A stretch of DNA of 64,000 bases from a virus, in IMG/VR virus record IMGVR_UViG_3300002092_001378, positions 1 to 64,000 of that record; one strand, written 5' to 3'. Below are positions 46,501 through 59,980 of the stretch, piece by piece. The notes under the pieces are model-generated. The model did not search any database. It worked only from the letters and a program-made list of their open reading frames with translations, and was not told the DNA's origin. Made by a program: the position numbers and the translations under genes. Every line of letters starts with the position of its first letter. The first letter of the stretch is position 1.

Positions 46501-46914
46501 AACAGATCATTCTCCGCAGGTACTATTATTAGTAACAGTGGAGTATTCTACAAAGTTCTAAACGATTTTACGTCAGGAGCTAGTTTCAGCAGAACTAATT
46601 TGGCTACAGCATTGCCCTGGGTAGCAAATACTGCTTACGTCAAGAATGACCTAATCAGTTACAATGGTGCAACTTACCAAGCAAAGGCATCGTTTACCAG
46701 TAGAAGTGCATTTGAAACTTCAATTGTTGTTCTTACTGAAACTGGCATTGCAACACTACTAATGAATAAACAAGGTACTGTTATATCGTTACCACCCAAT
46801 AGCCTAGTACGTCAAGGTAAAATTTGGCTAAATCCAGGGTATGCTGGGGTAACTGACGGCAATGGATTATTAGCTTCAACTTCTCAACAGGCATTGTTCC
46901 TAAAGGCATTATAA
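31501..46914 (+). CDS. Giant (5137 aa) baseplate wedge/structural protein, gp7-like position, with beta-propeller and carbohydrate-binding-like repeats
   Basis: Uninterrupted 15.4-kb ORF after gp6; FG...VVGAPG repeats; EVKPYHTKI motif; about ten W-x-(A/P)-N-T-x-(Y/F) repeats; IxxxGxGY repeats. Confidence 0.8.
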   Translation: MVDKNSLEFLPQVFRTNTNKRFLNATVDQLIQEPNMGRIYGYIGRQDLSPAFQQGDAYVQESDSYSQYYQLEPGLVINKRIVGTNNFKKDNAYNYVDLLNGIAQEGGINTNHSRLFANEYYNYEGFIDLDKLINYGKYYWVPNGPTTLEINGGGVPTYETFNISRPLDSGILSATLINRNVGSVGYSIDTQPGVINPTITVARGGHYTFNLAQPGHPLYIQSEPGINTGSSYQENINVRQVYGVNGNGTEVGTITFSVPSKDSQAFFEEMPVFDTVDLVLDVPFNQLQDAYVTDFLLDGSLDGIKSVTSKRVVLINDQDDFWIDPVPYDEFGNPYDSGSYDASEIVPKEKRRGIWQLNNVEGVIKISYVKDWPANTKVFVREGRTYGHINVFKDTLLNIYPVPTLTAPLDTLYYQDGADANVYGVIKIVDPDPNSGLNINEILGQEEYTSPNGVKLTSGLKIKFNGLITPESYLDREFVVEGVGKSISLIPWDSLVTPDPNNPNLGDGFAADSQSYDSLNYDYSLNAPLRKDYIVINRGSTDGNAWSRTNRWFHEDVIRYSATFLDSEAAVALDNNYRAIRPIIEFDPNLQLWNHGQKLVDTVTVIDNYITDVANQVEGLNPYVLVYANRGNSIRKVVSKSSHINVKTLSFDSVTDLSIDMKVIGVNISTNTTIEAIDYNKKIVTISNPLVGEITLGSEITFNGDYVSDDIPLENGTKVIFIREKYGNVRNKVYEVKNILPHSGLPVTKSVTQFASIGNQILKFGTVNDLFVNMHLTGTNIPANTVVLSIDSTNRTVTVNNKISNDIGVGSAITFSNDLTQIHLTPLHTMEEGDSVVAISGLTRQNQTYWWHNEAWLRAQNKFSLNQSPLFDVFNLDGISWGNTDYYGSSTFAGSKLFGYKEGTGTRDSELGFPLTYRSIGNIGDIVFENYYDTDTFTFNYNNKDQILATRFGYVHEFSAMYRTFKLRNNWTKVADLSKQYIEKRFVASQNLRNNFTVDVAFVNSFNEKNCSVHVNGKEIITGDFYTLMGNSTSSVISFVNDLNVGDVLIIRIYGTPNGVKENFTLPKNLVDNSFNDTFETLTLGQIRNHLLEIASNSLKFQGEPSGLNNLRDIDYKIIPGKILQHSAGVHIAQAMFNNDSTNIIKAIDFSRRNYTRFKDRFFYLVSSMEFPDTDDARGCLDIVMEEITLNSSNDQSFYYSDMMPFGINTYVYNDYTVYDTAYRTFNLVNSFNITEPSYQAVLVYQNNQQLLIGIDYTVNGFVVKLTNELNLEINDVISIYEYTNTRGSMIPATPTKLGLYPKFTPQIYLDNTFVDEPLNVIQGHDGSKSIAFDDYRDNIILEMEKRIYNNISVEFKNDANTSYLGVEPGAFRKTDYSLDEWTQLLSGSYLNWAGANNVNVFDNTTSDDSPFSFNYGAGYDVLFDEGIPGYWRGIYKYFYDTDTPHLTPWEMVGFSQEPTWWQVRYGPAPYSAGNLVLWQDMEAGVVYQHGYDSYTDIRYARPGLNQIIPVDEHGNLLAPYAGGDGFGIVTRWNSATSTAKWRFGDQSPQETAWRRSSEYPFAVQTAWALARPAQYCALSLNRRDLIRLNGLDQIINKVTANRKLNIQVTNDDYYVPGSNVWIRDRLADLNLDIVQNFVEIFDNLSLNLLYKASGYTDKSYVQLLADQASPSSTNSGIIVPQENYDIMVTKSAPIGVATYSAVVIEKTSNGFSVYGFDTSKPYFTVIPRRYNNNTYNIKVSNSTAVVYMDDENSILTIPYGTQFTSKQQVVDFLISYSKYLTSIGFQFIDTTSVETVPNVADWQLSVGEFLYWIEQGWDNKTLISLTPAGTKINFNSGFGVVDKINDSFNDSKVVDSNGKTLQTKDYTVFRSGTQFELKLRDVATGIHLIVMQVVQYEHTFVFDNVTVFNDVIYEPSLGNRQFRVRISGFKTRDWDGSLYAPGFLVNFMPINNWQPMKDYYKGEIVDFKNIYYTARQFVPGNSKFDVNNWYIVPNDNSLLSKQLIPNLAFNAQQFENFYDVDKFDINRSADSAARNATGFVAREYLNDIGLDNISQHKFYLGMIREKGTQAAVNAFLRAKLPYLNNTVKIDEQWAIRLGNFGGYNQKKDIEISLAGAKTYNSSYIIELIEANDTRSESWNSYKPKDLLVKPAAFDTNIFSSNEEYAPMIPMAGHVVNSEVDVTIFDINKINNASSLVTVLGEGSRIWVASDTKNNWKVYRITADYKITIIGAVVVNNEIEFTTDVAHTLSRNDFIMIKRGSITSTASGNKDLSGFYRVNAVSGKKFRVPVYPNGTSASGAMTGELYVLKTVRFSDRSRFAINPPGRGWQNGDRVWIDGLDGNWEVLGNQSPWLNNYTLSPVFGTNSHLFGNGIDLKTTQDIMVVGAPGKDKGYVYVYEQMGDNTWSVANSVTPENSYTSQFGYSVKYNDLDLAVVGAPGSNSGAGFAYIMQTSSSAIQINQIINPAGLTSSSGFGTAVAASSDGNWVAISAPGTNNVLIYKYKKVTVPANKSYTLTKLIYGQPTHTIIPDLVGTGKIAADLRVTLNQAMLVPNIDYTVAEGASGTEITLTFPNWQANTFYKIGDQFYYSPVIYNPTETHIWTVTAPFTSGATFSTTWTDPVTSTTATVMTQSLSTLTMTYDSYYEYKTTITLSNGTTSPKFGSSLSFATDGSQLIVGSPNYSPTATDVNVGQVNVYQRRIETFIANGVSKVFTLATSTTNPDVIVNGTLLTTGYTFVSSTLTLDTVPSADSIVTVATNAFNLIETKSPTVVQSYGYYGSKVLICPKSCSLYVGSPGYNNVNYGNGAVYRYVNEARTYGSIVGQNSNPTLTIGDYLRINNVKVAFTGTTVTQLVKDINNALIPGITASLLRGNLVLKTDSEIAFNKITVDASSTTVLATLGLTIFKSSQIITSNADQDTVNFGNQIAINNDSTKLLISANVANNRTIITFDQGRTTFDSRSTKVLSIAYRSGCAYLYEYMGDATETAATPGAFTFAQTFNNSVLATNDYFGTGIALGKNWVMVSSLNSKNNNAGAVYTYLNSNGLDNWRVVRSKPTNIDVRKLERLYLYNNNTKTLITDLPIIDPEHGMPVPSAPEQIRYMVNYDPAIYNNSPNNNTFANDSRNAWADEHVGELWWDTNQIKYADWNQGDLLNRFNNWGLSFPNSYISVYEWVESDVIPSQFATSKSTTIPVYTVSDVYTAKTKIDPLTLQAVTKYYFWVVNSNSNSSMKHRDTAVALQNLIVNPRNINQPFAAVIAGNALALFNCKDIVNEDTVLHISVNDNLTVNPVHREWSMFDDGTDLGVAEEFLNRMNDSMAGEDAQGRTVPDPGLTEKEKYGLDVRPRQTTFADRFKAREIWVNNVNAAFIKYPMSILRDLTDLNDYDPLPMVDGIDIKLQVDYDTDLPYINKAFYTQGDKILVVNDSTTGGWCIRKLLPNPANTVENSWQVYQIQTYDLRKYWEYADWYATQYSKDTPVSKILNYEYEIANSNPEIGDVIKILAGTDGKWKLILVQENSLELIGQQNATIQFSRSLYSNLNAGFGFETISWEVTSYAKDAAIEFRKIFNTTNNYLLTNELRSEYKALIGTMIDNIATQFKQNDWLFKTSLINIRHNVRSLDQIPVYTKQPENVVSGFISEVKPYHTKIKQYVSIYDKTDTSLLDVVDFDLPAYYNSQLGKYRQPQLGNPFDDAVIDNVIYSPWIANHTYSIDYIDIASPGSGYNNETKILIMGDGVGATATAYVRGGQLYDIIITNPGKGYTYANIKVLGIGSGASAYVKLGRATARMISTKLNFDRFTYTQLTKDWAANTIYSINDIVLHNNTVYRIATGNKGRSGDQNVVLSVMDAVVSSSGTGYQPGDKLYVTSKDAQAETISLYNASLGTVADTTVFARAAFNVDAIKLASVTIQNGGSNYAVGNTIVFELDNDVNVVLSVTAISGGGAIGPITAVSIANAGKRTVVPAANPLKYDILTQGAAANQPTGYGATFNFVWGIRNVSIDNPGAFTSKTVNGISYTTVPNNPASTTTNSSAGTNAKLTLTYDVSSYISGDTFDLDYLIEYKTREWKPNTSYLKDTIIVYKKKPYVALCNFTSGRYFECNTDISITNSVTWEANTYFVKGSVIVNDNTAYLVADNYTSPILFTNFVAQSTIAWTANTFFTEGQILKFAGISYKVLNDYTSAGSFDTNNLVELYENYIINVFPIAEYTGGYFDDASSRVWGYYQPAAGMPGKDLAQVMTGIDYPGVNVLGATFDQAPGYGFGLYEQIKYDTRTYDENGLLDIYGSQSLDTVLHSLYTDTQLGLRPADIISDGSQFIDVYNSHAPEELIPGHMFDSLNMRVKTLTATVVETAPKVLVVSQYADNVTTKFYFDPALLSPPQPHTNLPVENIENVTVFSDFEGPRTQGVDYTVNWEARYIEFLNPPKTPSSIYISIYGNSGQRVVYNNEFISDGIQLEYVAEDVTLDVVQQAYVKVNNVLADNWTIVKNDIVADWLPVFSYSKDDYVQYEGITYRATEDFTTDVEFNLTYLTAANKVVIRFDEAPEAGARIQIHLYDFPITQKAYSQIMNERVVVPVGYSGSALGYQTDLPEDQGFAYPREANMVVKLNGLTLEPSNQSYYTGTGMKTLFAMSATRNIANKLQVDLIVTVDGVLKSQNLDYLVNNNGVATPTITFTTPPPMGSRIIISDRSTSKYIINDTNVLTIRPTVALSPGDVIDIVQYSNYDQYQFNVQVFSGSLTDTVSAALGFEDIGFDQMGFDNELTNTLSSVTFTVTRPVTNISNVEITLNGIVLQAYIDYYFVTPTVVRLDPGLSIVSDSIIVIRQVSEDHALPSLEYRIFKNIAETYDYIGIGASTTTVLTKDFAIGDEWMYVQDTTVFGRPDPSLAIPGILFLNGERITYYFVDTINKRLGQLRRGTNGTGAGDLYEKGTKVYDASAKNEIPMARDTYTITNPTINWKAETSIVKDSLISHDGLIYRSSMNFTPNTDFETTMTMFYQVTLLNTIKWTANRSFSAGTIISNSGVFYKVLNDFTSGASFSRTNLATALPWVANTAYVKNDLISYNGATYQAKASFTSRSAFETSIVVLTETGIATLLMNKQGTVISLPPNSLVRQGKIWLNPGYAGVTDGNGLLASTSQQALFLKAL

Positions 46915-48563: not shown

Positions 48564-50423
48564 ATGGCATATATTGTTAATAAAACAGATGGAAATATTG
48601 CTGCTGTTGTTAATGACGGCACGCTTAGTACAGTTACGAGCATAAAGCTTGTTGGTATCGGTTACCAAAATTATGCTGAAACAATTGCTGAAAATCTTGT
48701 GCAGATGATGGAAAACTTTGCACACATAATACCCCCAACTGGACCTCTTCCTGGACAAATTTGGTTTAACAAAAATACCAGTCATTTGCAAGTTTATGAC
48801 GGTGTAATGTTTAAGGAAATTAACAATACTGCAATTAGTGACTCTACACCAATACACGCCAGAACCGGTGATTTTTGGTTTAATAACACCACAAAACAAT
48901 TATTTTTCTATAGAAATGGTAACTGGCAAGTAATTGCTCCTGCGTATCCAGCAAGTATGGGTGCAACAGACCTAGTAGCTGAAGGGTTAACTGATCTTAG
49001 TGGCAACGTACATCCTGCTGTTACTTTATATGTTGATGGTAGTAGAATGGCCATTATCAGTAAAGACGATAGTTATATGCCCATTCCTTATATTGAAGGG
49101 TTTACAAATGTAAATCCAGGCATAAACTTAATTGAATATCCAGGATATAGATACAGTGGTATAGTAGACTATGCAGGAGCAGCATATGGTTTACTATCAG
49201 ACGCCGATGCAACGTATATGCATGCCAACTCCGATGCCAGTACAGTAGGTACATTGAGTGTTATAAATGATGGTGGGATTGCAATTGGCGCAAATGGTGA
49301 TGTTGTTATATCATCAATAGTAGCCAGTCCCTATACTTTTGGTTCATCTATAACATCAACAACTGATAAATCTTTGGCATTAGTTGGTTATGGCGGTGGC
49401 ACATTAGTAATGGATAACGCTACTAATTGGATCGCCATTAATAAGATTAATCCCACTGCTGACTTAGATGTTGGTGGCTCAATTAATGCTGACGAGACTA
49501 TTACTTCGCAGGGCGGTTATTATTTTACTGATGGCAGCTTTATAAATTATTCTAATGTAAGCGGGTTAAGCACAATAAGATTGGCACCAGGTGGTGAGTT
49601 AGTTGCATTAACTGCTGATAGCACAGGCAATATTTTTGTTCAGGGATCTTCCAACTTTAATGATTCAATTGGAGTAACTGGTAGTGCTGTAGTGACAGGC
49701 AATGTTAGTATACAAACTTGGCCAACTGAAAATTATCATGCCACATCTAAGCAATATACTGAATCTTTAACAGTATCAAATATGTTACCATATGGTAGTA
49801 TTATCATGTGGTATGGTACAGTGGCAGATGTACCAGATGGATGGGCAGTATGCAATGGATCAAATGGAACACCAGACTTAACTGATAAGTTTGTTATGGG
49901 TGCCGGAAACCAAGCTGAATTAGGAACTATTGGTGGACAAAGCTTTGCAACAATAACAACAAATTTAAGCGGAGCACATACACATACTGGATCAACTGCA
50001 TCTGCCGGTAGTCATGATCACTCAGGATTAACAGGCGCACATGCGTTGACACCGGGAGAACTTGCAAGCCATCAACATACGTTTAACGACGTCTATGCTC
50101 TTCAGGATGATGCTAATCCACCATTATATGACAGAAATGGTAATAGAGTCTTTAGGTACAGTAGTTGGGGTGATGATGGCGACAATGATTCTGGTAACCC
50201 TGCATACTTTGAAAGTATTACAGATAGTGCTGGTTCAAGTGATCCACATAATCATCCAATAAGTTCTGATGGTATTCATTCACATGCATTGGCAATAGAT
50301 CAAACAGCCGCGCATTTACATACAATTGATAATTTTGACAATAGACCTAGCTTTATGGCATTATACTATATTATGAAAGTGGCAAATGCACTAGTAGAAC
50401 CTTTACAACCACCGGGTTATTAA
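48564..50423 (+). CDS. Fibre protein 2 with tail-collar domain and HxH tip repeats
   Basis: Shared N-module; LPYGSIIMWYG...PDGWAVCNGSNGTPDL collar motif; HTH/HDH/HQH/HNH/HSH repeats; NRPSFMALYYIMK end. Confidence 0.8.
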   Translation: MAYIVNKTDGNIAAVVNDGTLSTVTSIKLVGIGYQNYAETIAENLVQMMENFAHIIPPTGPLPGQIWFNKNTSHLQVYDGVMFKEINNTAISDSTPIHARTGDFWFNNTTKQLFFYRNGNWQVIAPAYPASMGATDLVAEGLTDLSGNVHPAVTLYVDGSRMAIISKDDSYMPIPYIEGFTNVNPGINLIEYPGYRYSGIVDYAGAAYGLLSDADATYMHANSDASTVGTLSVINDGGIAIGANGDVVISSIVASPYTFGSSITSTTDKSLALVGYGGGTLVMDNATNWIAINKINPTADLDVGGSINADETITSQGGYYFTDGSFINYSNVSGLSTIRLAPGGELVALTADSTGNIFVQGSSNFNDSIGVTGSAVVTGNVSIQTWPTENYHATSKQYTESLTVSNMLPYGSIIMWYGTVADVPDGWAVCNGSNGTPDLTDKFVMGAGNQAELGTIGGQSFATITTNLSGAHTHTGSTASAGSHDHSGLTGAHALTPGELASHQHTFNDVYALQDDANPPLYDRNGNRVFRYSSWGDDGDNDSGNPAYFESITDSAGSSDPHNHPISSDGIHSHALAIDQTAAHLHTIDNFDNRPSFMALYYIMKVANALVEPLQPPGY

Positions 50424-50456: not shown

Positions 50457-52049
50457 ATGTCATATAGTATTACTACGTCCAATAACGCAACTTCCTATCT
50501 GGTACCAGATGGTCGTTTAAATTCCGACACTTCCTTGGATTTTATTGGTAAGGGAACAACTGCATATGGTACATCACTTAACTCAAATTTTTTACATCTA
50601 TTAGAAAGTTTTGCGGCACCAACTCCTCCAGCGCGATCAATTGCTGGGCAAATATGGTTTGATACTTCAACTGGATACCTTAAAGTCAGCAATGGGCTTG
50701 GATTTAATTATGTAACGGGCCCAATTGATTTTATTGATCACAGTACAATTGGTAATATTTTACTACAGTCAAGCAGTATTACTGGCACACTCACTAACGC
50801 TAATGTAAACATTACACCCAATGGTACAGGAAGCACTGTAATTAAGAACATTGCATCTAATAATTTTACTGTTGGTCGTGTTCCTTATATTGCTGCAAAT
50901 GGTGCATTAGTTACAAATGCAATGAGTTATAATGTAGTAACTGATACATTAGCTGCCGCATATCTAACTGCTGGTAGTGGTATATCAGGGCTATTAACTA
51001 CTGCTGCTCAGACTAATATTACAAGTCTCGGAACTTTAAATACACTTGCGGTTAACAGTGCAAGTGCAATTTCACTTACTTCTGCAAATACAAATGTTGT
51101 TGGGAACGCCACAGTTAGTGCAAATCTAGGAGTCAGTGGCACTGGTAATTTTGCTGGTACGGTTAATGCAGCGACAGTATTAGCAACTTCAATTGGTAAT
51201 TCAACTACTGTAATGACTGCTGCTACATTTACTGGCACACATAATGGAACACACAACGGTGCATTAAACGGGGCACATAATGGAACTGTTGGTGCAACTA
51301 CTGCTAACACTGGAAATTTTACCACTATCACTGCTTCGACGATCAGTACGACTGGTGGATTGTCTGGAGTTGCAACAAACTTCAATACGAATCCAGCAAG
51401 TATAGATACAGGTAGAATATTTGCTATCTATAATACAAATTATATGCCGGGAGCAAGTTACAGCTCTTCTGATTCACGTATATTTGACTTTGGTGTGACT
51501 ACTGGTAATATCGCTTATCTACGTACAAGTGGAACCAATGGGTTTCAAATTTTATCAGGTGGAAGTGGCACCAGTTTTAATAACTCAATATTACCTACAA
51601 CTACTGCCACCTATAATTTAGGTTCATCAGGTGCTACTTGGGCAACTATCTACGGTCTAGCAACATCTGCAAAGTACGCTGACTTGGCGGAAAATTATGT
51701 TGCTGATGATGATTATGAGCCCGGCACTGTTGTTATATTTGGTGGGGATCAGGAAGTTACTGTTTGCGATAAAGATGCAAGCAATGCTATTGCTGGTGTA
51801 ATTTCAACTGAACCAGGCTACTTAATGAATGCTGCAATTAATGTACCACATGTTGCCACAGTGGCATTAGTTGGCCGTGTTCCAACTAAGGTTAAAGGGC
51901 CAATTAAAAAGGGACAGATGCTGGTTGGAACTGCTGACGGCATGGCTCGCGCAGAAGACAATCCCAAGATGGGAACAGTAATTGGCAAGGCGCTTAAAGA
52001 CTTTAACGGTGACGTTGGGGTTATTGAAGTTGTAGTTGGGCGTCTCTAA
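50457..52049 (+). CDS. Fibre protein 3 with a C-terminal intramolecular-chaperone/peptidase-like domain
   Basis: Shared N-module; T/N/G-rich shaft; AKYADLAENY...GRVPTKVKGPIKKG...IGKAL C-terminal domain. Confidence 0.75.
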   Translation: MSYSITTSNNATSYLVPDGRLNSDTSLDFIGKGTTAYGTSLNSNFLHLLESFAAPTPPARSIAGQIWFDTSTGYLKVSNGLGFNYVTGPIDFIDHSTIGNILLQSSSITGTLTNANVNITPNGTGSTVIKNIASNNFTVGRVPYIAANGALVTNAMSYNVVTDTLAAAYLTAGSGISGLLTTAAQTNITSLGTLNTLAVNSASAISLTSANTNVVGNATVSANLGVSGTGNFAGTVNAATVLATSIGNSTTVMTAATFTGTHNGTHNGALNGAHNGTVGATTANTGNFTTITASTISTTGGLSGVATNFNTNPASIDTGRIFAIYNTNYMPGASYSSSDSRIFDFGVTTGNIAYLRTSGTNGFQILSGGSGTSFNNSILPTTTATYNLGSSGATWATIYGLATSAKYADLAENYVADDDYEPGTVVIFGGDQEVTVCDKDASNAIAGVISTEPGYLMNAAINVPHVATVALVGRVPTKVKGPIKKGQMLVGTADGMARAEDNPKMGTVIGKALKDFNGDVGVIEVVVGRL

Positions 52050-52702
52050 ACATAGTCTGCATCAAAAACAATACAGTTTCTAGGTAAATCACTGTGATGT
52101 TCAGTTACTGCATGCCATACTTCAGGTTTATGAAGTACTAATTCTCCCTCTGATGGCTGCAAATACCATTTGTCTTTTTCATCATAGATCGTGTGCAATG
52201 TGTCAGGTATACCGTTTTTAATAAACACCAAATTACTAGAATTTTCAGGCACATCTAGGTAAAAAATTGCCACTATATCAGCTCTAAAATTTTCACTACT
52301 TAAATCAGTATATTCTGCCATATAAGAATCTAGCTCAATATGTCTATGACATTTGCCCTGTGATCCTTTGACCATTCTATTTGCCCAAGCACGTTTATAA
52401 GAAACACTAGTGCCCAATTTATTGATTCCAAGTGTGTTTTTTGCTAACAAAATTTGTTCGCTTACCCATTGAGTTAAAGGTTGAGCGCCAGGCAAATGTA
52501 TTACTTGCAAGTATGTCTGCCCAACAGTTGTCATGCCTCCGCCCACATGGCTATCTCCACGCGGTGCTTTTACTCTGAATTTTACTTCAGGTAAATTTAA
52601 TACACGATTAATACTTTTTGTTAAATCGCTGTTCCTATATAGTGATACATCTGTGCATTGTATTCTAACTACAGTGCTGCCAAAAACATTTTCAACTTTC
52701 AA
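52046..52702 (-). CDS. 2OG-Fe(II) oxygenase (TIGR02466-like)
   Basis: WANRM...HRH...AIFYL...PSEGELVLH...WHAV...RNCIVF; TTG start with AAGGA RBS. Confidence 0.75.
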   Translation of the reverse strand: MKVENVFGSTVVRIQCTDVSLYRNSDLTKSINRVLNLPEVKFRVKAPRGDSHVGGGMTTVGQTYLQVIHLPGAQPLTQWVSEQILLAKNTLGINKLGTSVSYKRAWANRMVKGSQGKCHRHIELDSYMAEYTDLSSENFRADIVAIFYLDVPENSSNLVFIKNGIPDTLHTIYDEKDKWYLQPSEGELVLHKPEVWHAVTEHHSDLPRNCIVFDADYV

Positions 52703-54083
52703 CTTTTTTCCTTATGAAATCTGCATGATCTTGTAAATGACTTGTATCTAGATTTTTAACCTGTAAAGGCTTTATGATTCCAATTCCTGCCATAACATAT
52801 TTCCAATCTTTAAAATCCAATGGTCTTAAGTAGTCTGTTACTTTGTTTGTGGGCATTATTCTTATCAAATAATCTAAATCTTTTTCAGTTAACTTTTCAC
52901 CAAATTCAATGACATTTTTTACCAAGTCTGGTATTGTATTTTTGTTTTTAAAATTGCGCCAAAAAACGGTGTCAGTTCTTTTGGTCATATAATGTAAGTG
53001 TACAAAACAGGAGTTTTCTTCGTTAAGCTGCCTAACTGCATTATTGTATTCATCAATGGACTGTTGGTGTTTGTGTCTGCCCATGCCATTAATTTTTGCT
53101 TGTAGCATCCTTAGGCTCATAATTGAAATGCCAATTGCAGTTGCTTCTAAAGGTTCAGCAAATCCACTGGAAAGCCCAATGGCAATGCAATTATTGATCC
53201 AAGTTTTTTCGTAACAGCCTGCATTAAAATTAAAAATCTTAGGAGGAATTACTTCAACTCCAAAATATTCTTCTAATTCTTTTTTAATTTCCTCATCAGT
53301 AGCTAGGTTACTGTCAAATACATAACCACACCCAAATCTATCTTGTACAGGAATCTTCCAAGCCCACCCATGTTTCATTCCAATAGATTCTGTATATGAA
53401 GGAATATTTTCATTGTCATGTGGTAAAAAAAATGGCATTGCTCTATTAACAGGTAAAAAATCTGCATAGGAATGCCAAGTAGCTTTGTAAAAATTACCTA
53501 TAATTAATTTTTTAAACCCGCTGCAATCAAATACAAAATCTAGTTTAATTTTTTGATTATTGGATAACACTAGCTCACTGATGTCATTTTTATCATTCGG
53601 TATTATTTCTGTTACTTGTGCATCTATATATTCTATACCACGTTGAATGGCAAACCCCTTAAGGTAGTCGGCCATTATCATTGCGTTAAAATGAACTGAA
53701 TCTTCGGTCAATATTCCATTATGTCTAATTCGTTGATTGTTATAATCAAAGAGAACTTTATTTTCTTTTGCTGCTGCGATACTGATATCTTCTGTGGAAG
53801 AAATAGCTGAATGAAAATAAGAAGTGCCGTCTCCGTTCCAGTTAGTAAACTTAATAGCATTTTTTATGGTAATTTTACATTTCTTTATTACTTCATTGAA
53901 GTCCAACCCCAGATCATTTTCTAAAAATTCACTGAAATTTTTAGTGGTTCCTTCACCAGCACCAAGTACTCCTATTTCACTACTTGCGACAACCGTTACA
54001 TTGCTATATGGGATATTTTTTTGCACATACAATGCCGTAAGCCAACCAGCAGTTCCACCACCTACTACAACAAATTTTTTCAT
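52692..54083 (-). CDS. Flavin-dependent (tryptophan-type) halogenase
   Basis: VVGGGTAGW, GAGEGT, TIKNAIKF (catalytic Lys), FDCSGF, intact GWAWKIP, SGFAEPLEAT. Confidence 0.9.
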   Translation of the reverse strand: MKKFVVVGGGTAGWLTALYVQKNIPYSNVTVVASSEIGVLGAGEGTTKNFSEFLENDLGLDFNEVIKKCKITIKNAIKFTNWNGDGTSYFHSAISSTEDISIAAAKENKVLFDYNNQRIRHNGILTEDSVHFNAMIMADYLKGFAIQRGIEYIDAQVTEIIPNDKNDISELVLSNNQKIKLDFVFDCSGFKKLIIGNFYKATWHSYADFLPVNRAMPFFLPHDNENIPSYTESIGMKHGWAWKIPVQDRFGCGYVFDSNLATDEEIKKELEEYFGVEVIPPKIFNFNAGCYEKTWINNCIAIGLSSGFAEPLEATAIGISIMSLRMLQAKINGMGRHKHQQSIDEYNNAVRQLNEENSCFVHLHYMTKRTDTVFWRNFKNKNTIPDLVKNVIEFGEKLTEKDLDYLIRIMPTNKVTDYLRPLDFKDWKYVMAGIGIIKPLQVKNLDTSHLQDHADFIRKKVES

Positions 54084-54658
54084 GACAAATACCTAAATTC
54101 TAATACCAAACTTACTCTTAAATCATCGCTAAGGTTTGTTTCAACGCTATGAATAGCATAAGAAGGAAATAAAATAAGTTTGCCAGGTTCCGGAGTTACT
54201 CGATGTGTCATATAACCTGAATTATTCTTCTTATTTGTATCAAATGTTTGTTTAACATATGGATCTTGCCATATGTCAGGAACAGATCCTCTTGCGTCAT
54301 GTATTAATAGATCTCCGCAATTTTTAGGAGCTTTTAAATAATAAACACCAACTACACCGTCTACATATGGATGGTGGTGTGGTGGATCACTTTCCAATGG
54401 TCGCCGAACATGTTGACGACCCCTTATTTGTACAGTATTAAAAGTAATACCATAATCTCTTGCAACTTGTTCGGCAATATCAATTACTTTATCTTTAAAC
54501 TCAGTGATACCCTCACCCGGCATATCAAATAGTATATAATCCCCATTGGCCTTATAGTTTAAGGTATCCATTAATATTTTCTTGTTCATCATTCTAGCAT
54601 CGTCAAAGTTAACAATCCAGACTGGGGTAGAAAACATTAGATTAGTATTAATATCCAT
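54080..54658 (-). CDS. 2OG-Fe(II) oxygenase (TIGR02466-like)
   Basis: MFSTPVW, PHHHP, GVYYLKAPKNCGDL, PEPGKLILFPSYAIHSV, RVSLV; start ATG 54658. Confidence 0.85.
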   Translation of the reverse strand: MDINTNLMFSTPVWIVNFDDARMMNKKILMDTLNYKANGDYILFDMPGEGITEFKDKVIDIAEQVARDYGITFNTVQIRGRQHVRRPLESDPPHHHPYVDGVVGVYYLKAPKNCGDLLIHDARGSVPDIWQDPYVKQTFDTNKKNNSGYMTHRVTPEPGKLILFPSYAIHSVETNLSDDLRVSLVLEFRYLS

Positions 54659-55229
54659 TTTCAATCCCTTTATTGATAAATCTAAATTCAAATACTACAC
54701 TAATCCTTGTATCATTGCTAAAATTGGGTTCGACTGAATGTATTAGATAGTTGGGAAACAATAGTAACATGCCAGGTTTAGGTTCAATCTTAACAGATAC
54801 CCTCCCGTCCCTCATTATACCATCATTGGTAATATTAGGATCTTTCCACATATTTGAAACTGAACCTCGGCAGTCTATAAACTGTATGTCCCCGCAATTT
54901 TTTGGAGTTTTAAGGTAATATATACCTAGCATATCAGACCCTGGATGATGATGTGGGGTATCAAACTCGCCAGGTTTCATTGGGTTAAGTCGACTTCGAA
55001 TATTTAAATTATCGTACACCCAATTATTTTCAACAGCAATTTCTGTAACAGCATCTATAATAATTTTTTTAAGTTCGGCAATGCCCTCACTTGGTAAATC
55101 AAGAAATTCTTGATTTCCGGTTTTATATTCAGCACTATCTACTATGAGTTTTTTATTTAAGAACCGATAATCTTCAACTTGATATATCCACAGTGGAGTA
55201 GCAAACAGTTGCTTTACTTGTCTTTGCAC
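54648..55229 (-). CDS. 2OG-Fe(II) oxygenase (TIGR02466-like), paralog of the downstream gene
   Basis: LFATPLW, PHHHP, GIYYLKTPKNCGDI, PKPGMLLLFPNYLIHSV, RISVV; GTG start. Confidence 0.85.
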   Translation of the reverse strand: MQRQVKQLFATPLWIYQVEDYRFLNKKLIVDSAEYKTGNQEFLDLPSEGIAELKKIIIDAVTEIAVENNWVYDNLNIRSRLNPMKPGEFDTPHHHPGSDMLGIYYLKTPKNCGDIQFIDCRGSVSNMWKDPNITNDGIMRDGRVSVKIEPKPGMLLLFPNYLIHSVEPNFSNDTRISVVFEFRFINKGIENGY

Positions 55230-55230
55230 A

Positions 55231-55890
55231 TTAAAGTCTTTCTAGATCCTGCTTCAATTTAGAAACGATGTCATCGTGTAGATCTTCATTGTCATAAATT
55301 TCAGATGTCAGTGAATATTCAATAACAATATGATTTGGTTCAATGGCAGAGAACACATTGTAAATTAAATCAGCTGGTACTGTGTCTAGTGTATGACCGG
55401 CAACTTTACATGAAATTACAATCTTGTCCTCTCCATATAATTCATAGACAGTAACAGCCTCAACGCCATCAACGTCGTCAATTAATTGTAACAGTTTTGA
55501 CAAATTATCAGAGTAATTGGAAATAGGAGCTAATGAACGATTGTTATAAAGCAGAGAAGAAACTTTTGTTTCAGGATCAATGAAAAAAGTAATGTTTTTA
55601 GAATGGTCATTACTTAATGTAGATATCACTGCAAACGCTTCTTCCGCAACATTTGTTTTTGCCAACTGATCGACTGAGTCAATTAAATTATCAGTAACAA
55701 CTATATTCAATACTCCACCGTCAAATTCAAAAATAAATTTAATTAAGTTTTTGCCAGTGATATTATACTTGCTTGCTATTTGCTTTACTGTGATTTCGTC
55801 TGGCACGTCGACTGATGCCTTTGTAAAAGCACTATGCCCTGTAAATAAATCAAATACCTTTTGTATATTTTTAGTAACTGTTATTGACAT
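55231..55890 (-). CDS. Hypothetical protein in the radical SAM cassette
   Basis: 219-aa ORF tightly coupled to the rSAM gene (3-bp gap), AAGGA RBS; no motif recognised. Confidence 0.7.
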   Translation of the reverse strand: MSITVTKNIQKVFDLFTGHSAFTKASVDVPDEITVKQIASKYNITGKNLIKFIFEFDGGVLNIVVTDNLIDSVDQLAKTNVAEEAFAVISTLSNDHSKNITFFIDPETKVSSLLYNNRSLAPISNYSDNLSKLLQLIDDVDGVEAVTVYELYGEDKIVISCKVAGHTLDTVPADLIYNVFSAIEPNHIVIEYSLTSEIYDNEDLHDDIVSKLKQDLERL

Positions 55891-55893
55891 TTG

Positions 55894-57360
55894 TTATCCT
55901 TTAAGGCTTTTTGCAAGCCATCCTTCAACTTTTGCCTGACCGTAAATTTCTATGTCGTCAATCATTCCAGTTTTTTCAATTACTACCTTTTTAGTAGTCC
56001 ACTTGGGAGTATTCATATCCGTATGTTCATAAACAGTTCCCCAAATGTCTTGCCTACCCAATGGCAATCCGTCGCCTTCAATGGTAACAGGAATAAACCC
56101 ATTGGTCATTTTTACAAAACTTAGAGCAAATAAAGGAACATTATCTGAGTATGCACTGTCGCAAGTTGCATCCCAATTTGGACCATCTAGATACATGCAA
56201 GATCCCTTGCATAGCTGTAGTACAGGACAATCTTTACACCCTGCTCTATTTTTCCAATGTGTGACAGATTTTAATGCTACATTAGCATAATCTTCTAAAT
56301 TACCACCTAGATGCGGCTCACCATTCTTACTTAATTCCTTAACACTTACATTTTGACATGTGACAATGTTACCCAATAGGTCCACAGCAATTGTATGCTC
56401 ATCATCCATGCCGCATTTTTGTCCAAGATTTGCAGCATCAAAATGATTCAAAACACTTTTAGTAAAATTATCAATTTTTTCGTATTGCCCATAAAATCCC
56501 AATGTATCTTCGTATCCATACACATCATTAAAACTCTGACGTCTATATTCAAAATGTTCATTCAATGTAGCAAAACTACTATTAAGGCCATCATCGTCGT
56601 AAGCATCGACGAAAGACCCTTCGCCTATAATTACATCAGGATCGCCGGTAAATTCAACAAACCAATCATAAACTGCACGTCTGCTGGTATTACTTTTGTT
56701 CATCATAGTATTAAAGCTAATCCTGCCATGTGGTTTCATAACTTTATAGAATTCCATAAGAATTTTCTTTTTTTCAGGATCAATGAATGGGTCCGGACCT
56801 CTTGTTGGTTGCCCAGGGCCATCATGGCTAATGCCAACATTAAAGCCCATATAATACAACCACGAGCAAATTTCTCTAGTTAGTAAACTGCCATTAGTAA
56901 TAACACTGAAAACAGGTTTTGTTTTCCAACTATCAAATTTCTCATCAAGTGCTTCTGCCAATGGTTTTAATGTCTTCCAATAAACGAAAGGTTCTCCGCC
57001 CCAAAATTCAATCTTTAACCCTTTATCTTCACGAAATTCTAACACATCCATTTTAGCAAGAAATGCATCTATATCCTTCTTACTGGTCTCATCAGGACGT
57101 TCAACAAACTTTTGACTACAATAGCTGCATGAATAGTTGCAACTTAACCCCAATTGAATTTTAAGTGTATTAATTTTATTTGATTTTAGTAGAGGATCTT
57201 CTTTGGAAAATGCTCGGCTGGGAGTTAATCCAGAAAAATTTGCAAGATTAGGATATTCAAAAACAAATCCTGATTCATCTGTCAGAATATTTTTTTGATT
57301 GTCGTAAAAAAATGTTTTACGACCCTCGCCAGCCTTTTCTGCTTCTACTTTAAATAACAT
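55894..57360 (-). CDS. Radical SAM enzyme with SPASM domain (anSME/peptide-maturase class)
   Basis: CNYSCSYC (CxxxCxxC), FWGGEP, ITNGSLL, ISHDG; SPASM cysteines KCG...TCQ...CKDCPVLQLCKGSC...TC. Confidence 0.92.
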   Translation of the reverse strand: MLFKVEAEKAGEGRKTFFYDNQKNILTDESGFVFEYPNLANFSGLTPSRAFSKEDPLLKSNKINTLKIQLGLSCNYSCSYCSQKFVERPDETSKKDIDAFLAKMDVLEFREDKGLKIEFWGGEPFVYWKTLKPLAEALDEKFDSWKTKPVFSVITNGSLLTREICSWLYYMGFNVGISHDGPGQPTRGPDPFIDPEKKKILMEFYKVMKPHGRISFNTMMNKSNTSRRAVYDWFVEFTGDPDVIIGEGSFVDAYDDDGLNSSFATLNEHFEYRRQSFNDVYGYEDTLGFYGQYEKIDNFTKSVLNHFDAANLGQKCGMDDEHTIAVDLLGNIVTCQNVSVKELSKNGEPHLGGNLEDYANVALKSVTHWKNRAGCKDCPVLQLCKGSCMYLDGPNWDATCDSAYSDNVPLFALSFVKMTNGFIPVTIEGDGLPLGRQDIWGTVYEHTDMNTPKWTTKKVVIEKTGMIDDIEIYGQAKVEGWLAKSLKG

Positions 57361-57384
57361 TCGATATTCCTTGATTTGTTGAAT

Positions 57385-57765
57385 TTACCATAAACAAGCA
57401 CATAAACAAAGGCAATTGCAGTTATAAGAGCGTGTAGTGATAGTACAATTATATGTACATGCACAATTGCAATTGGTTTGTAGGTATGACTGTGCGTCGC
57501 AGTTTGCACAATCTACAGTGCCATTAATTACACAATTTACACAGTTAATATTGCCACTTCCCAGTGATTCAACACAATTCCCGTTATCGCAATTTCCATC
57601 AGCATTGCGCTGATAATATGCTTTACTATACTTGCCTGACAACGGATTGGTTGGTACTTTCTCAACAGATTTAATCCAGCTCATACTCACACTAAGAGTA
57701 GTTGCACGTCCAAGTTCAGTATTAACGTCGCTAAATTTAATTATTCCGGAAGCTGGTAATGTCAT
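57385..57765 (-). CDS. Cys-rich protein (15 Cys, 10 Asn-Cys pairs); candidate radical SAM substrate
   Basis: 126 aa from ATG 57765; Cys-free N-terminal half (MTLPASGIIKFSDVNTELGR...) and a C-terminal half ending NCNCACTYNC...NCNCLCLCACLW; directly upstream of the rSAM gene. Confidence 0.8.
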   Translation of the reverse strand: MTLPASGIIKFSDVNTELGRATTLSVSMSWIKSVEKVPTNPLSGKYSKAYYQRNADGNCDNGNCVESLGSGNINCVNCVINGTVDCANCDAQSYLQTNCNCACTYNCTITTRSYNCNCLCLCACLW

Positions 57766-57786
57766 GACTATTTCCAAATGTTACGG

Positions 57787-57794
57787 TATTTATC
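57787..57794 (-). promoter_or_regulatory. Late-promoter motif GATAAATA driving the rSAM cassette
   Basis: Plus-strand TATTTATC, 22 nt upstream of ATG 57765. A divergent TAAATA at 57857-57862 serves the next fibre gene. Confidence 0.6.
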
Positions 57795-57880
57795 ATCACA
57801 TAACACTGTCATTACAATATACGCAACTGATGTTAAAGTCAATTTTTTAATGCCGATAAATAATTGAGTCAGGGGTAGTC

Positions 57881-59980
57881 ATGTCATATACAATTAATGT
57901 CACTAATAGTAATCCAATTACAATATTGTCAGGTACTTCAGATACCAGCACTGCACTTACGCTTGTGGGAAAGAATATTTCTAACTACGGAGAAATATTT
58001 GCTCAAAATTTTGTTGACTTAATGCAAAACTTCGCAAGCCCCAGTGCTCCAAATGGGATATTAGAGGGACAATTATGGTATGACAGTGGCACATATTCCT
58101 TAAAATTATATAAGAACGGCAGCTATAAAGTTATATCAACTATTTCATCCAGTACAACCGCCCCAACTGCCCCTTACATTGGTGATTTGTGGTGGGATAC
58201 GGCAAATAGTCTTCTTAAGATATGGAATACTACTACTTGGGTTTCTATTGGCCCCAACGTATTGAATACTTCCAGTTCAGCAGTTGCGGACGCTATACTT
58301 GACACCAATAATGTGCTGAGACCAATCTTAAAAATGGTAGTTGATTCGGCTGTTGTTGCAGTATTCAGTTCTGCTACCTTTGCACCTCAGACAACATATA
58401 ACGGGCTTACATTAATTTACGGTGGCATGACACTTGTTGGTACCGGAACAACTTTCGGAAACATTGTTAGCTCATTTGCGTCAATTACTACTCTTAACGC
58501 AACTACAACTAATGCTTCGCAAGTAAATGCTGTTACTGTAGTTGCCACAACAATTGGAAATGCTAATTCAGCAATACGAGGAACAAGTGCCACCGTTGCT
58601 GGCGCAATTACTGCTGCAACTGTCAATGCACTTAATATTGGAAACGCCGGAGCTACAATAACAGGTACACATAATGGTCCACATAATGGACCATTTAATG
58701 GAAATATTGGATCAGTAACTCCTAACACTGCTGTCTTTACAACTGTGACTGCTGATACTGTTACTGCAATAACTGTGACAGGTAATACTATAGGAAATAC
58801 TGGTGCTACATTAACTGGTACGCTCTCAACTGCTACTCAACCAAATATTACAAGTGTGGGAACATTAACTGGTGCAACAGTAAATGGAACTTTAACTGCT
58901 ACAACTGCCAATGCAACCACGGTAAATGCAACTACCACTAATAGTAGCACGGTAAATGCATCGACTGTTAATGCTGTAACACTAGCGGCAACAAATATTG
59001 GTAATGCTACCTCGGTTGTAACTGGTGCAAGTGCTGCAATAGCTGGCACAGTGACCGCTGCAACAGTTAACGCCCTGGCAATCGGAAACAACGGTGCGAT
59101 AATAACCGGAACACATAACGGTCCACTTAATGGACCATTTAATGGAACTATAGGCGCTACAGTTGCTAATACAGCAGCATTCACTACAATGGCAACATCG
59201 GGTACAACCAGTTTAGCAACATTGAGTGGTAATGTTGGGATTGGTACTGCGTCAGCTGCTGCAAAATTACATGTTGCGGGAACACTTAATTTAACGAGCA
59301 CACTGTCAATATCTGGTGCTCCAGGTGGGAGTGGGCAATTCTTAACATCCGGTGGCGCAGGCGCCGCCCCTACTTGGACTAGTATGCGTAGCGGATTTAG
59401 CGACATGGTAGTTTATGGTGTGGCAGGCACTTATGCTTGGACTGTGCCGGCAAATGTTACTAAAATAAAAGCAACTGTTGTTGGTGGCGGTGGTGGTGGC
59501 GGCGGCAGTGGCCAAAATTATGATAGTGGCGCTGGTGGCGGCGGTGGTGGCACATCCACTAAAATTATTAGCGGTTTAACTCCTGGAACTTCTATTACTG
59601 TCACTGTTGGTGGTGGTGGCGGAGGTAGTAATGGTTGGGGAGGAACTGGGCAAACTGGCGGAACTTCGTCTGTTGGTTATTGCAGCGCGACAGGTGGTGA
59701 AGGTGGTGCTCCAACTTCTGGCTCTGGTGGCGTTGGCGGCATAGGTAATAGTGGAGATATTAATATTAGAGGTCAGGCAGGTGGTTCCGGCATTGCGTGT
59801 GGTACATACGGCGGTAGTCCTGGGGGCAATGGCGGATCTTCTACGTTGGGTGGCGGCGGCCAAGGCGGATCAGGTACTGGTGGCATTGGTGGATCTTATG
59901 GCGGAGGCGGAGGCGGCGCCGGTGGTATATACACCTCAGGTGGCGCAGGCGCCACGGGTGTTGTAATAATAGAATACTAA
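57881..59980 (+). CDS. Fibre protein 4 with internal duplication and Gly-rich C-terminal domain
   Basis: Shared N-module; duplicated T/A/N-rich segment ending GTHNGPxNGPFNG; WTVPANVTKIKATVVGGGGGG...GATGVVIIEY Gly-rich tip. Confidence 0.8.
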   Translation: MSYTINVTNSNPITILSGTSDTSTALTLVGKNISNYGEIFAQNFVDLMQNFASPSAPNGILEGQLWYDSGTYSLKLYKNGSYKVISTISSSTTAPTAPYIGDLWWDTANSLLKIWNTTTWVSIGPNVLNTSSSAVADAILDTNNVLRPILKMVVDSAVVAVFSSATFAPQTTYNGLTLIYGGMTLVGTGTTFGNIVSSFASITTLNATTTNASQVNAVTVVATTIGNANSAIRGTSATVAGAITAATVNALNIGNAGATITGTHNGPHNGPFNGNIGSVTPNTAVFTTVTADTVTAITVTGNTIGNTGATLTGTLSTATQPNITSVGTLTGATVNGTLTATTANATTVNATTTNSSTVNASTVNAVTLAATNIGNATSVVTGASAAIAGTVTAATVNALAIGNNGAIITGTHNGPLNGPFNGTIGATVANTAAFTTMATSGTTSLATLSGNVGIGTASAAAKLHVAGTLNLTSTLSISGAPGGSGQFLTSGGAGAAPTWTSMRSGFSDMVVYGVAGTYAWTVPANVTKIKATVVGGGGGGGGSGQNYDSGAGGGGGGTSTKIISGLTPGTSITVTVGGGGGGSNGWGGTGQTGGTSSVGYCSATGGEGGAPTSGSGGVGGIGNSGDINIRGQAGGSGIACGTYGGSPGGNGGSSTLGGGGQGGSGTGGIGGSYGGGGGGAGGIYTSGGAGATGVVIIEY

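Follow-up and report, generated by a model that had tools for sequence, protein, structure and literature searches.

The 64,000-nucleotide (nt) stretch of viral DNA analysed here (the window; positions 1 to 64,000 of IMG/VR record IMGVR_UViG_3300002092_001378) carries a cassette of seven minus-strand genes among tail-fibre genes. They encode a small Cys/Asn-rich protein, a radical S-adenosylmethionine enzyme with a SPASM domain (rSAM), an orphan protein, three 2-oxoglutarate (2OG)-Fe(II)-oxygenase-like proteins and a flavin-dependent halogenase. We found that homologues of the rSAM are accompanied by Cys/Asn-rich proteins in nearly all viral loci and in most bacterial loci collected, and that in prophage-like loci the Asn-Cys repeats sit at protein ends, in several cases those of tail fibres. 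Judged from sequence, the cassette would be expressed late and would mature a small virion protein of fibre type, and the full mechanism proposed below is in our view moderately probable.

Pairing of the radical SAM enzyme with Cys/Asn-rich proteins

The viral set comprised 80 IMG/VR contigs with rSAM homologues 56–68% identical to the window enzyme, whose open reading frames (ORFs) were clustered without low-complexity masking. A Cys/Asn-rich homologue directly adjoined the rSAM gene in 77 of the 80 loci, either upstream as a free-standing protein of 125–175 amino acids (aa) or downstream as a protein of ~300 aa, so the pairing survives changes in gene order. For the bacterial set, one genome per prokaryotic species was scanned, giving 80 loci with rSAM homologues 34–58% identical; these were prophage-like and came mostly from freshwater Betaproteobacteria, together with Alphaproteobacteria. 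An ORF with an (N/D)C repeat was present near the rSAM gene in 59 of the 80 bacterial loci, pairs being counted when the rSAM gene lay within 4.5 kb downstream or 1.5 kb upstream of this ORF on the same strand, and 13 of the 21 remaining loci hold less than 2.8 kb of upstream sequence. The motif is rare (59/2957 ORFs of at least 80 aa in the bacterial loci).

The (N/D)C motif lay 0–18 residues from the C-terminus in 55 of 58 bacterial proteins. In the other three it was trailed by ~160–200 residues, whose beginning was that of a Hint domain where the sequence was read. Six of ten Asn-Cys-ended bacterial ORFs scanned matched tail-fibre PHROGs, one of them a collagen-like (collagen-repeat) fibre at 3e-82, and the other four gave no match; the prophage fibres with Asn-Cys ends were 180–540 aa long. 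Achromobacter phage JWF has an rSAM 44% identical to that of the window, and its gp028, encoded two genes before the rSAM, is a gp36-like tail fibre with a terminal (N/D)C repeat and a Hint domain after it. Genes resembling the PF13759 oxygenases of the cassette were found in 48 of the loci selected by rSAM, and they lay between the fibre and the rSAM gene in at least 25 bacterial loci. By sequence, the combination of fibre end, oxygenase and rSAM is kept as a triad well outside the T4-like phages. The earlier note had proposed, from the window alone, that the phage encodes a pathway of post-translational modification timed to virion assembly, and had named missing co-occurrence of the rSAM with the Cys-rich ORF among the results that would speak against it; the co-occurrence held in both sets, and together with the late-promoter motif described below it supports such a pathway at the level of sequence.

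The window protein of 126 aa consists of a Cys-free N-terminal domain of ~55 aa, beginning MTLPASG.I.FS, and a conserved module with 15 Cys, mostly in Asn-Cys pairs, that ends ...CACLW. Several N-x-x-C spacings are present, and the sulfatase motif C/S-x-P/A-x-R was absent on a check of the sequence. The family comprises 97 homologue clusters of near length and 142 longer ones, with Cys and Asn columns fixed across the alignment, and the protein had zero matches in Pfam, PHROG and NCBIfam. Exactly past the end of the window protein, longer relatives carry on as a Peptidase_S74 domain, as a Hint domain or as a hydrophobic-ended domain of 170 aa that is uncharacterised; for the last of these, carried by the 300-aa forms, a search of the ESM Atlas returned unnamed viral clusters only. 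The window protein itself has no S74 match (PF13884) and ends before the S74 onset seen in relatives (L005, L037, P0107 and others), and the S74-bearing relatives match many tail-fibre PHROGs through S74 and partly beyond it. S74 and Hint domains are both self-removing, so the mature relatives would end with the Cys module, like the window protein.

The N-terminal motif behaves as a module of its own. In Pseudomonas phage Cygsa01 it forms the start of a Gly-rich protein without Cys, encoded next to baseplate genes, and in two viral loci (L007 and L012) it is split from the Cys module by a Gly-rich domain of ~230 residues that resembles the tip domain of the window fibre encoded at 57881-59980. 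On this evidence, fibre-type protein module is a more fitting description of the small protein than leader-plus-core precursor of a ribosomally synthesized peptide that is post-translationally modified (RiPP). The cassette had been called RiPP-like: the pairing of a Cys-rich protein with the rSAM stands, and the S74 and Hint fusions and the independent N-terminal module make the leader-plus-core view less likely. An AF2 monomer model had usable confidence for the N-terminal domain only, and a predicted three-copy complex scored 0.02, which gives no verdict and is evidence neither way.

The cassette, its late-promoter motif and its predicted enzymes

By gene content the source phage is a T4-like aquatic myophage, with baseplate hub and wedge genes, an ORF of 5137 aa and then a run of fibre genes. 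The IMG/VR fragment to which the window belongs is 101.7 kb long (CheckV completeness 29%), stems from an uncultured phage and was recovered from metagenomes of freshwater and lake origin (DNA sequencing runs). The features of the cassette and its flanks are as follows.

52046-57765, minus strand: cassette of seven ORFs, between the fibre genes 50457-52049 and 57881-59980
57787..57793, minus strand: late-promoter-like motif of T4 type, GATAAATA, 22 nt upstream of the Cys/Asn-rich gene
57385..57765, minus strand: Cys/Asn-rich protein, 126 aa, predicted substrate; ATG start, with a TTG also at 57777
55894..57360, minus strand: radical SAM enzyme with full SPASM domain (three predicted [4Fe-4S] sites); Pfam, NCBIfam and PDB matches
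55231..55890, minus strand: orphan protein, 219 aa; position-equivalent ORFs in other halogenase-type cassettes
54648..55229, minus strand: 2OG-Fe(II)-oxygenase-like protein, copy a; PF13759 at 73.2 bits and TIGR02466 at 74 bits, both above cut-off
54080..54691, minus strand: 2OG-Fe(II)-oxygenase-like protein, copy b; PF13759 at 53.4 bits; ATG 54658 is the likelier start
52692..54083, minus strand: flavin-dependent halogenase of the Trp-halogenase family, 463 aa; PF04820 at 306.9 bits, 3e-91
52046..52702, minus strand: 2OG-Fe(II)-oxygenase-like protein, divergent copy c with an insert; PF13759 at 38.1 bits
50457..52049, plus strand: flanking tail-fibre gene whose 3' end abuts the cassette end; tail-fibre PHROG matches
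57881..59980, plus strand: flanking tail-fibre gene with a Gly-rich C-terminal domain, divergent from the cassette; tail-fibre PHROG matches
57856-57862, plus strand: second, divergent copy of ATAAATA, before the fibre gene 57881-59980 and 63 nt from the cassette copy

The arrangement reported in the earlier note, seven tightly coupled minus-strand genes between fibre genes, was recovered at the same positions, and both flanks matched tail-fibre PHROGs. From the Cys-rich gene onward the genes are separated by 24, 3 and 1 nt and then overlap by 11–44, 4 and 11 nt; the range reflects the start of copy b, for which TTG 54691 gives an overlap of 44 nt with copy a and ATG 54658 an overlap of 11 nt, the latter being favoured by the alignment of homologues. 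The order Cys-rich protein, rSAM, ORF of ~210–230 aa, 2OG, 2OG, halogenase is repeated in seven other loci (L093, L097, L098, L101, L104, L106 and L108), and a megablast search of the cassette against cultured phages gave zero matches. Regions of this type are termed the "host recognition cluster" in pelagimyophages and cyanomyophages, where variable "radical SAM cassettes" were named without analysis (PMC7029224).

The window has 14 copies of ATAAATA, the core of T4-type late promoters, where 28 would be expected, and most of them lie 20–60 nt 5' of a same-strand start codon, as read from the ORF table. The first cassette gene has such a copy, which bears out the observation that it is preceded by the same motif as the structural genes; a scan of the window found none inside the cassette. 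The tight gene coupling and the single motif suggest a single transcript, and as a motif match the placement fits one late transcript for the cassette. Taken together, the sites amount to a usable, sequence-predicted late-promoter map of the phage. They include 8702, 11186, 18259, 18328, 19868, 28038, 48541, 50428, 57787, 57856 and 60008; those at 35337 (minus strand) and 46947 (plus strand) are within ORFs.

The rSAM belongs to the radical SAM (PF04055, 31.2 bits, cut-off 29.5) and SPASM (TIGR04085, 31 bits, cut-off 27) families. Its CX3CX2C motif (C74/C78/C81) is invariant in ten homologues, including those of two cultured phages. The SPASM domain is defined by the seven-Cys pattern CX9-15GX4C ... 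CX2CX5CX3C ... C, which holds two auxiliary clusters, and the corresponding residues C316, C335, C375, C378, C384, C388 and C400 are invariant in the same ten homologues. Conserved extensions of ~60 aa and ~90 aa flank these domains at the N- and C-terminus, respectively. The best curated models for the enzyme in NCBIfam are all Cys-thioether maturases (PapB, geopeptide at 79 bits, QhpD, CcpM and SCIFF), and CteB (PDB 5WGG) is among its few PDB matches. NxxcB uses Asn as the native acceptor of a Cys beta-thioether at NxxC motifs (PMC9389541), and CrpC forms ranthionine links in a Cys-rich substrate that is a protein and not a peptide (PMC13692751). Because of these two precedents, a thioether from Cys to the side chain of Asn or Asp is the most likely reaction.

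All three oxygenases score above the PF13759 cut-off of 27 bits and are assigned to the 2OG-FeII_Oxy_5 family. The metal triad HxH...H and the RxS motif are intact in each, with H93, H95, H164 and R175 invariant in the alignment; the second metal ligand is His, in contrast to the canonical Asp/Glu. Copy b is 42% identical to copy a, and orthologues of copy c, 50–53% identical, occur at the same cassette end in L006 and L009-L014.

The orphan protein has three sequence homologues only. It had no match in Pfam, PHROG or NCBIfam and no usable match in the ESM Atlas, and a PDB profile search was empty. The slot directly after the rSAM gene is filled by an ORF of 207–236 aa in every halogenase-type cassette, and the orphan is weakly similar to these slot-equivalent proteins over its full length (22% identity, E 8e-7, in a small database); no similarity was seen to JWF gp029 or to ORF046 of Ralstonia phage RSP15. 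An AF2 model built from the alignment of the slot family had a predicted local distance difference test score (pLDDT) of 81.6 and two alpha/beta halves. Foldseek searches with it found nothing at E ≤ 0.001, and the best VIA-align hits (Z 4.6–6.3, below the meaningful level) were generic alpha/beta sandwiches, including type III secretion chaperones. By sequence and position, the orphan is a fast-evolving, positionally conserved, lineage-specific member of the cassette. The gene listed as unknown in the earlier note has thereby gained slot-equivalent relatives.

The halogenase retains the GxGxxG motif (G8-G13), the catalytic K74, W240-x-W242-x-I244-P245 and the EPLE glutamates E310/E313. These motifs are invariant in eight homologues, and the protein belongs to the Trp-halogenase family. 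With the family scores and invariant residues of the rSAM and oxygenases, this confirmed the labels assigned from sequence inspection: an rSAM/SPASM enzyme, three 2OG oxygenases and a halogenase with intact motifs. The PDB matches of the halogenase are RebH, PrnA, Thal and VirX1 (the last at 1e-49), and its length of 463 aa is below that of free-Trp halogenases. The nearest cultured relative is HTVC008M gp079 (39% identity), which has an adjacent 2OG gene (gp078) and no rSAM.

The presence of this halogenase followed the C-terminus of the Cys-rich protein. Among the loci selected by rSAM, seven have a close halogenase homologue (44–49% identity), and each of their Cys-rich proteins has Trp as its last residue or Phe-Trp right before the S74 cleavage site. 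A search based on the halogenase yielded 16 further loci with an rSAM among its closest relatives; 15 of them keep the Cys-rich gene, and all 15 proteins end in Cys-Trp or in Phe-Trp plus S74. Pooled, a mature C-terminal Trp was found in 23/23 Cys-rich proteins accompanied by the halogenase clade versus 0/69 without it, where L015, counted as halogenase-lacking, ends right after the rSAM gene. Clustering at 70% identity left 14 versus 30 clusters, none discordant, and the background frequency of Trp-ended ORFs was 10/1863. The C-terminal Trp of the Cys-rich protein is, from these sequence associations, the best candidate for the halogenase substrate, with the note that the independent events are few.

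Several observations were made beside this comparison. In a Burkholderiales metagenome-assembled genome (MAG), a collagen-repeat tail fibre of 542 aa (L179:3414-5042) ends in an NC/AC/DC repeat and then Trp; no halogenase was found in the 13 kb of this locus, and it is the sole case of a terminal Trp without one. The 2OG/halogenase pair of HTVC008M (L003, 63198-66772) has the small terminase gene on one side and the large one on the other. A 545-aa ORF right after the halogenase is Trp-ended too in three related contigs (L158, L163 and L164), which is probably coincidence.

Other cassettes with the rSAM differ in composition. The commonest viral type (L022-L082, e.g. L026:8001-15972) starts with PhoH, rSAM, the 300-aa Cys-rich protein and two small unknown proteins, and continues with a PF13759 protein, two proteins of ~180–220 aa, a PF05118 Asp/Asn-hydroxylase-like protein, a B12-binding radical SAM protein and a PD-(D/E)XK nuclease; some loci of this type have one or two fatty-acid-desaturase-like genes between rSAM and substrate. 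Another type (L040, L043-L048, e.g. L045:5607-11686, L038 and L018) comprises an S74-ended long fibre, a Cys-rich protein of 125–173 aa ending in pure NC repeats, the rSAM, an ORF of 320–330 aa and a halogenase-like flavoprotein of 400 aa, the last being ~20% identical to the window halogenase with a PF04820 match confined to its C-terminal two thirds. The 320–330-aa protein is homologous to RSP15 ORF047 (hhalign 96.6%), a neighbour of the RSP15 rSAM. Among the gene families that follow rSAM genes, hhalign gave two matches only, this one (c34/RSP15 ORF047, 96.6%) and c49/c202 (71%).

Window-type small Cys-rich proteins with rSAMs 57–58% identical were also found on contigs filed under bacterial genomes, namely Polynucleobacter (L169), Paraburkholderia (L170) and a Lishizhenia MAG (L168). 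One of these contigs is 28.7 kb long at 277x coverage, and another of the loci lies within a 286-kb contig. They may be prophages, or phage contigs that were binned together with host sequence, and so a possible hint of host range. Elsewhere in the window, the 5137-aa ORF (31501-46914, plus strand) immediately precedes the fibre genes and occupies the place of VrlC of pelagimyophages, which has been described as a component of a two-layered baseplate (PMC7029224). The fibre protein encoded at 48564-50423 (plus strand) has dense His-x-His motifs in its C-terminal third, resembling the metal-binding HxH repeats of T4 gp12/gp37-type tips. By sequence, the phage may be equipped with both His-ladder and Cys-ladder fibre elements.

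Competing explanations of the cassette

In the mechanism that we favour, the substrate would be the 126-aa protein, with an N-terminal docking-type domain and a Cys/Asn-rich module, whose end matches the point where fused relatives shed S74 or Hint. The rSAM/SPASM enzyme would join Cys sulfur to side-chain carbons of neighbouring Asn/Asp as ranthionine-type thioethers. Such links would form in the reducing cytoplasm, lock the module before release and persist outside the cell, which would suit a part of the virion. The three PF13759 oxygenases probably hydroxylate the same Cys-rich protein, with Asn/Asp as the likeliest targets; the commonest cassette type additionally encodes a PF05118 protein similar to Asp/Asn beta-hydroxylases and an rSAM of the B12-binding kind. 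The flavin halogenase would act on the C-terminal Trp, and the orphan protein would present or chaperone the substrate, its role as a substrate-handling partner being a guess. We infer every chemical step, the order of the steps and the incorporation into the virion. The pairing of enzyme and substrate is the firmest part, and certainty then falls stepwise from thioether chemistry through hydroxylation and Trp halogenation to virion location.

If the cassette made a classical RiPP, the N-terminal 55 residues would be a leader and the Cys-rich part a core, released as a toxin, signal or metal chelator against host or competitors. An rSAM/SPASM enzyme, oxygenases and a halogenase are typical of RiPP tailoring (PMC9389541; PMC10286304), and the conserved N-terminal segment could be a recognition sequence. 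Many viral pairs are away from fibres, beside PhoH, with B12-rSAM and Asp/Asn-hydroxylase genes, and secondary metabolites have been proposed for the oxygenase/halogenase arrays of cyanophages (Iyer et al., PMC2938197). However, Pfam, PHROG and NCBIfam scans of the seven cassette genes found no leader protease, exporter, transporter, immunity gene or RiPP recognition element (RRE), although a novel RRE could escape such scans. The presumed leader heads the Cys-free Cygsa01 protein and is ~230 aa from the Cys module in L007 and L012, C-terminal S74 chaperones are a hallmark of trimeric fibres, and the prophage Asn-Cys ends belong to tail fibres of 180–540 aa. The late-type promoter motif, arranged divergently with the copy of a fibre gene, likewise argues against this explanation, which we regard as unlikely. 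The earlier note had left the choice between a virion appendage and a secreted peptide; the S74 and Hint fusions and the Asn-Cys ends of true fibres favour the appendage, and the secreted product is less favoured.

It also seems improbable that the module is a metal- or Fe-S-binding fibre domain, with Cys ladders replacing the HxH iron sites of T4 gp37, and that the rSAM catalyses a reaction other than thioether formation (epimerisation, oxidation of Cys to formylglycine, C-C or C-O cross-linking, or cofactor insertion). SPASM enzymes catalyse many types of reaction, and this variety is in keeping with such a different reaction. An alternating xCxCxC pattern would put Cys on one face of a strand, the window fibre at 48564-50423 has HxH repeats, and the rSAM is outside every curated thioether family and has a weak full-length match to the anaerobic sulfatase maturase. 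Against it, the Cys-rich protein lacks the sulfatase motif C/S-x-P-x-R, the top-scoring rSAM models are all Cys-thioether maturases, and the near-obligate pairing of the rSAM with Cys-rich ends best fits a Cys-directed reaction. A chance collection of unrelated 'morons' in a hypervariable host-recognition cluster, with no common substrate or function, is very improbable. Homologues of the 2OG and Trp-halogenase proteins are indeed scattered in structural regions of cyanophages and pelagiphages that lack the rSAM (PMC7029224; PMC2938197), and most halogenase loci are without rSAM and Cys-rich protein (66/82). Yet the rSAM/Cys-rich pairing is near-universal, also in distant phage types and where the genes are ordered differently, the complete order is repeated in other loci, the halogenase clade precisely follows the terminal Trp, and tight coupling with a single late-promoter motif suggests one transcript.

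Several results weigh against a fibre-maturation pathway. The scores of the rSAM against curated maturases are all far below the family cut-offs: 80.2 versus 340 bits for the PapB family (NF047865; alignment over residues 63-390), 69.1 versus 453 for QhpD (TIGR03906) and 37.9 versus 349, a weak full-length match, for the anaerobic sulfatase maturase (TIGR03942). The enzyme belongs to none of these families, and it can be said to work like the thioether maturases, not to be a member of them. The Cys module has a pLDDT below 50 in the AF2 model, a profile comparison of the module with true fibre C-termini and tips was not significant and was dominated by composition, and the large fibre genes of the window have no Asn-Cys tails. 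In ~45 viral loci the pair is beside PhoH and other non-structural (repair) genes and takes the 300-aa hydrophobic-ended form, whose C-terminal domain could, by sequence, imply a membrane rather than a virion location. The rSAM of RSP15 is in a tail module with no Asn-Cys neighbour. On a quick maximum-likelihood tree of the rSAM, the halogenase-Trp label needs 2–3 changes, so that independent events of this association are few. Finally, related halogenase/2OG pairs are also present in phages without rSAM and Cys-rich protein, as in HTVC008M and in 66 of 82 halogenase loci, and the enzymes therefore need not share one substrate.

Related systems and biological meaning

The fibre-maturation pathway that we favour has its closest counterparts in CrpC/CrpA of Methanococcus voltae (Dieter et al. 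2026, PMC13692751) and in QhpD/QhpC of quinohaemoprotein amine dehydrogenase, where the product is likewise a matured protein and not a cleaved peptide. QhpD is among the best curated matches of the window rSAM, yet at 69 versus 453 bits. Unlike in these systems, the substrate here would be a module or tail of Asn-Cys repeats on fibre-type proteins of phages, and the putative pathway is viral, predicted to be late-expressed and combined with oxygenases and a halogenase.

Among ranthipeptide and sactipeptide systems, PapB/PapA (freyrasin), CteB/SCIFF (5WGG) and NxxcB/NxxcA provide the best-scoring models or structures for the window rSAM, and the N-x-x-C spacings of the window protein recall the NxxC motifs of NxxcB (PMC9389541). 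In contrast to these maturases, the window enzyme is outside the equivalog families and has no full N-terminal RRE evident in the ~60 residues before its cluster motif, no leader protease or exporter was detected, and the presumed substrates extend from a protein of 126 aa to fibres longer than 500 aa. For the halogenase, SrpI brominates the C-terminal Trp of a ribosomal precursor (PMC10286304), and SrpI/SrpE and other RiPP flavin halogenases (PMC10286304, PMC10858898) parallel the present clade, which is found only with Trp-ended proteins. The likeness to SrpI is at the level of the PF04820 family, and the proposed substrate here is a virion-type protein.

The same enzyme families are known from the hypervariable structural regions of T4-like aquatic phages. 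In 2010 Iyer et al. described tandem dioxygenase/Trp-halogenase arrays of cyanophages (Syn9 gp49-58 type), which they linked to unknown secondary metabolites (PMC2938197). The nearest cultured pair is HTVC008M gp078/gp079, and VirX1 (PDB 6QGM) is a solved cyanophage halogenase. These arrays of cyanophages and pelagiphages are without the rSAM and the Cys-rich protein, whereas here a halogenase subclade is tied to a candidate protein substrate. In T4 gp37/gp12-type tips and S74 chaperones, the likeness lies in the fibre context: relatives of the small protein end in S74 with a predicted cleavage at the end of the window protein, and alternating residues recur, with Cys/Asn in place of the His of the HxH repeats. 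The window copy differs in being without a chaperone and accompanied by a dedicated enzyme set.

A literature search found no description linking rSAM/SPASM enzymes to Asn-Cys-ended fibre proteins or to the substrate of a viral halogenase, and none of chemistry in the style of peptide antibiotics on a virus particle; the JWF-related papers examined do not mention the rSAM, and the papers searched held no virion proteomics of a cultured carrier; one paper (PMC12801897) mentions an unrelated cyanophage rSAM. The statement that no phage system of this type had been characterised therefore agrees with what we found, except that tandem 2OG/halogenase arrays were already known in T4-like aquatic phages (PMC2938197). 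The kinds of enzyme are known, and the target and the biological setting are new.

More broadly, several unrelated tailed-phage lineages may mature their fibre ends with RiPP-type enzymes, the rSAM stapling Asn-Cys ladders and one clade adding hydroxylation and Trp halogenation; we put this forward tentatively. If true, a virus particle would for the first time be seen to be cross-linked and halogenated by enzymes, and a clade of viral halogenases would gain a natural substrate. The compact, self-contained enzyme/substrate pairs could be of use in protein stapling and site-specific C-terminal halogenation. Radical and oxidative chemistry, so far seen in no more than peptide natural products and a small number of cofactor-bearing enzymes, would finish the receptor-binding structures of phages, which would then not be purely genetically encoded. 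This would bear on the folding stability of fibre tips outside the cell and on host-range evolution, in which enzyme and tail would have to change together. It would likewise bear on the purpose of the abundant oxygenase and halogenase genes of aquatic phages, which were first noted in cyanophage genomes.

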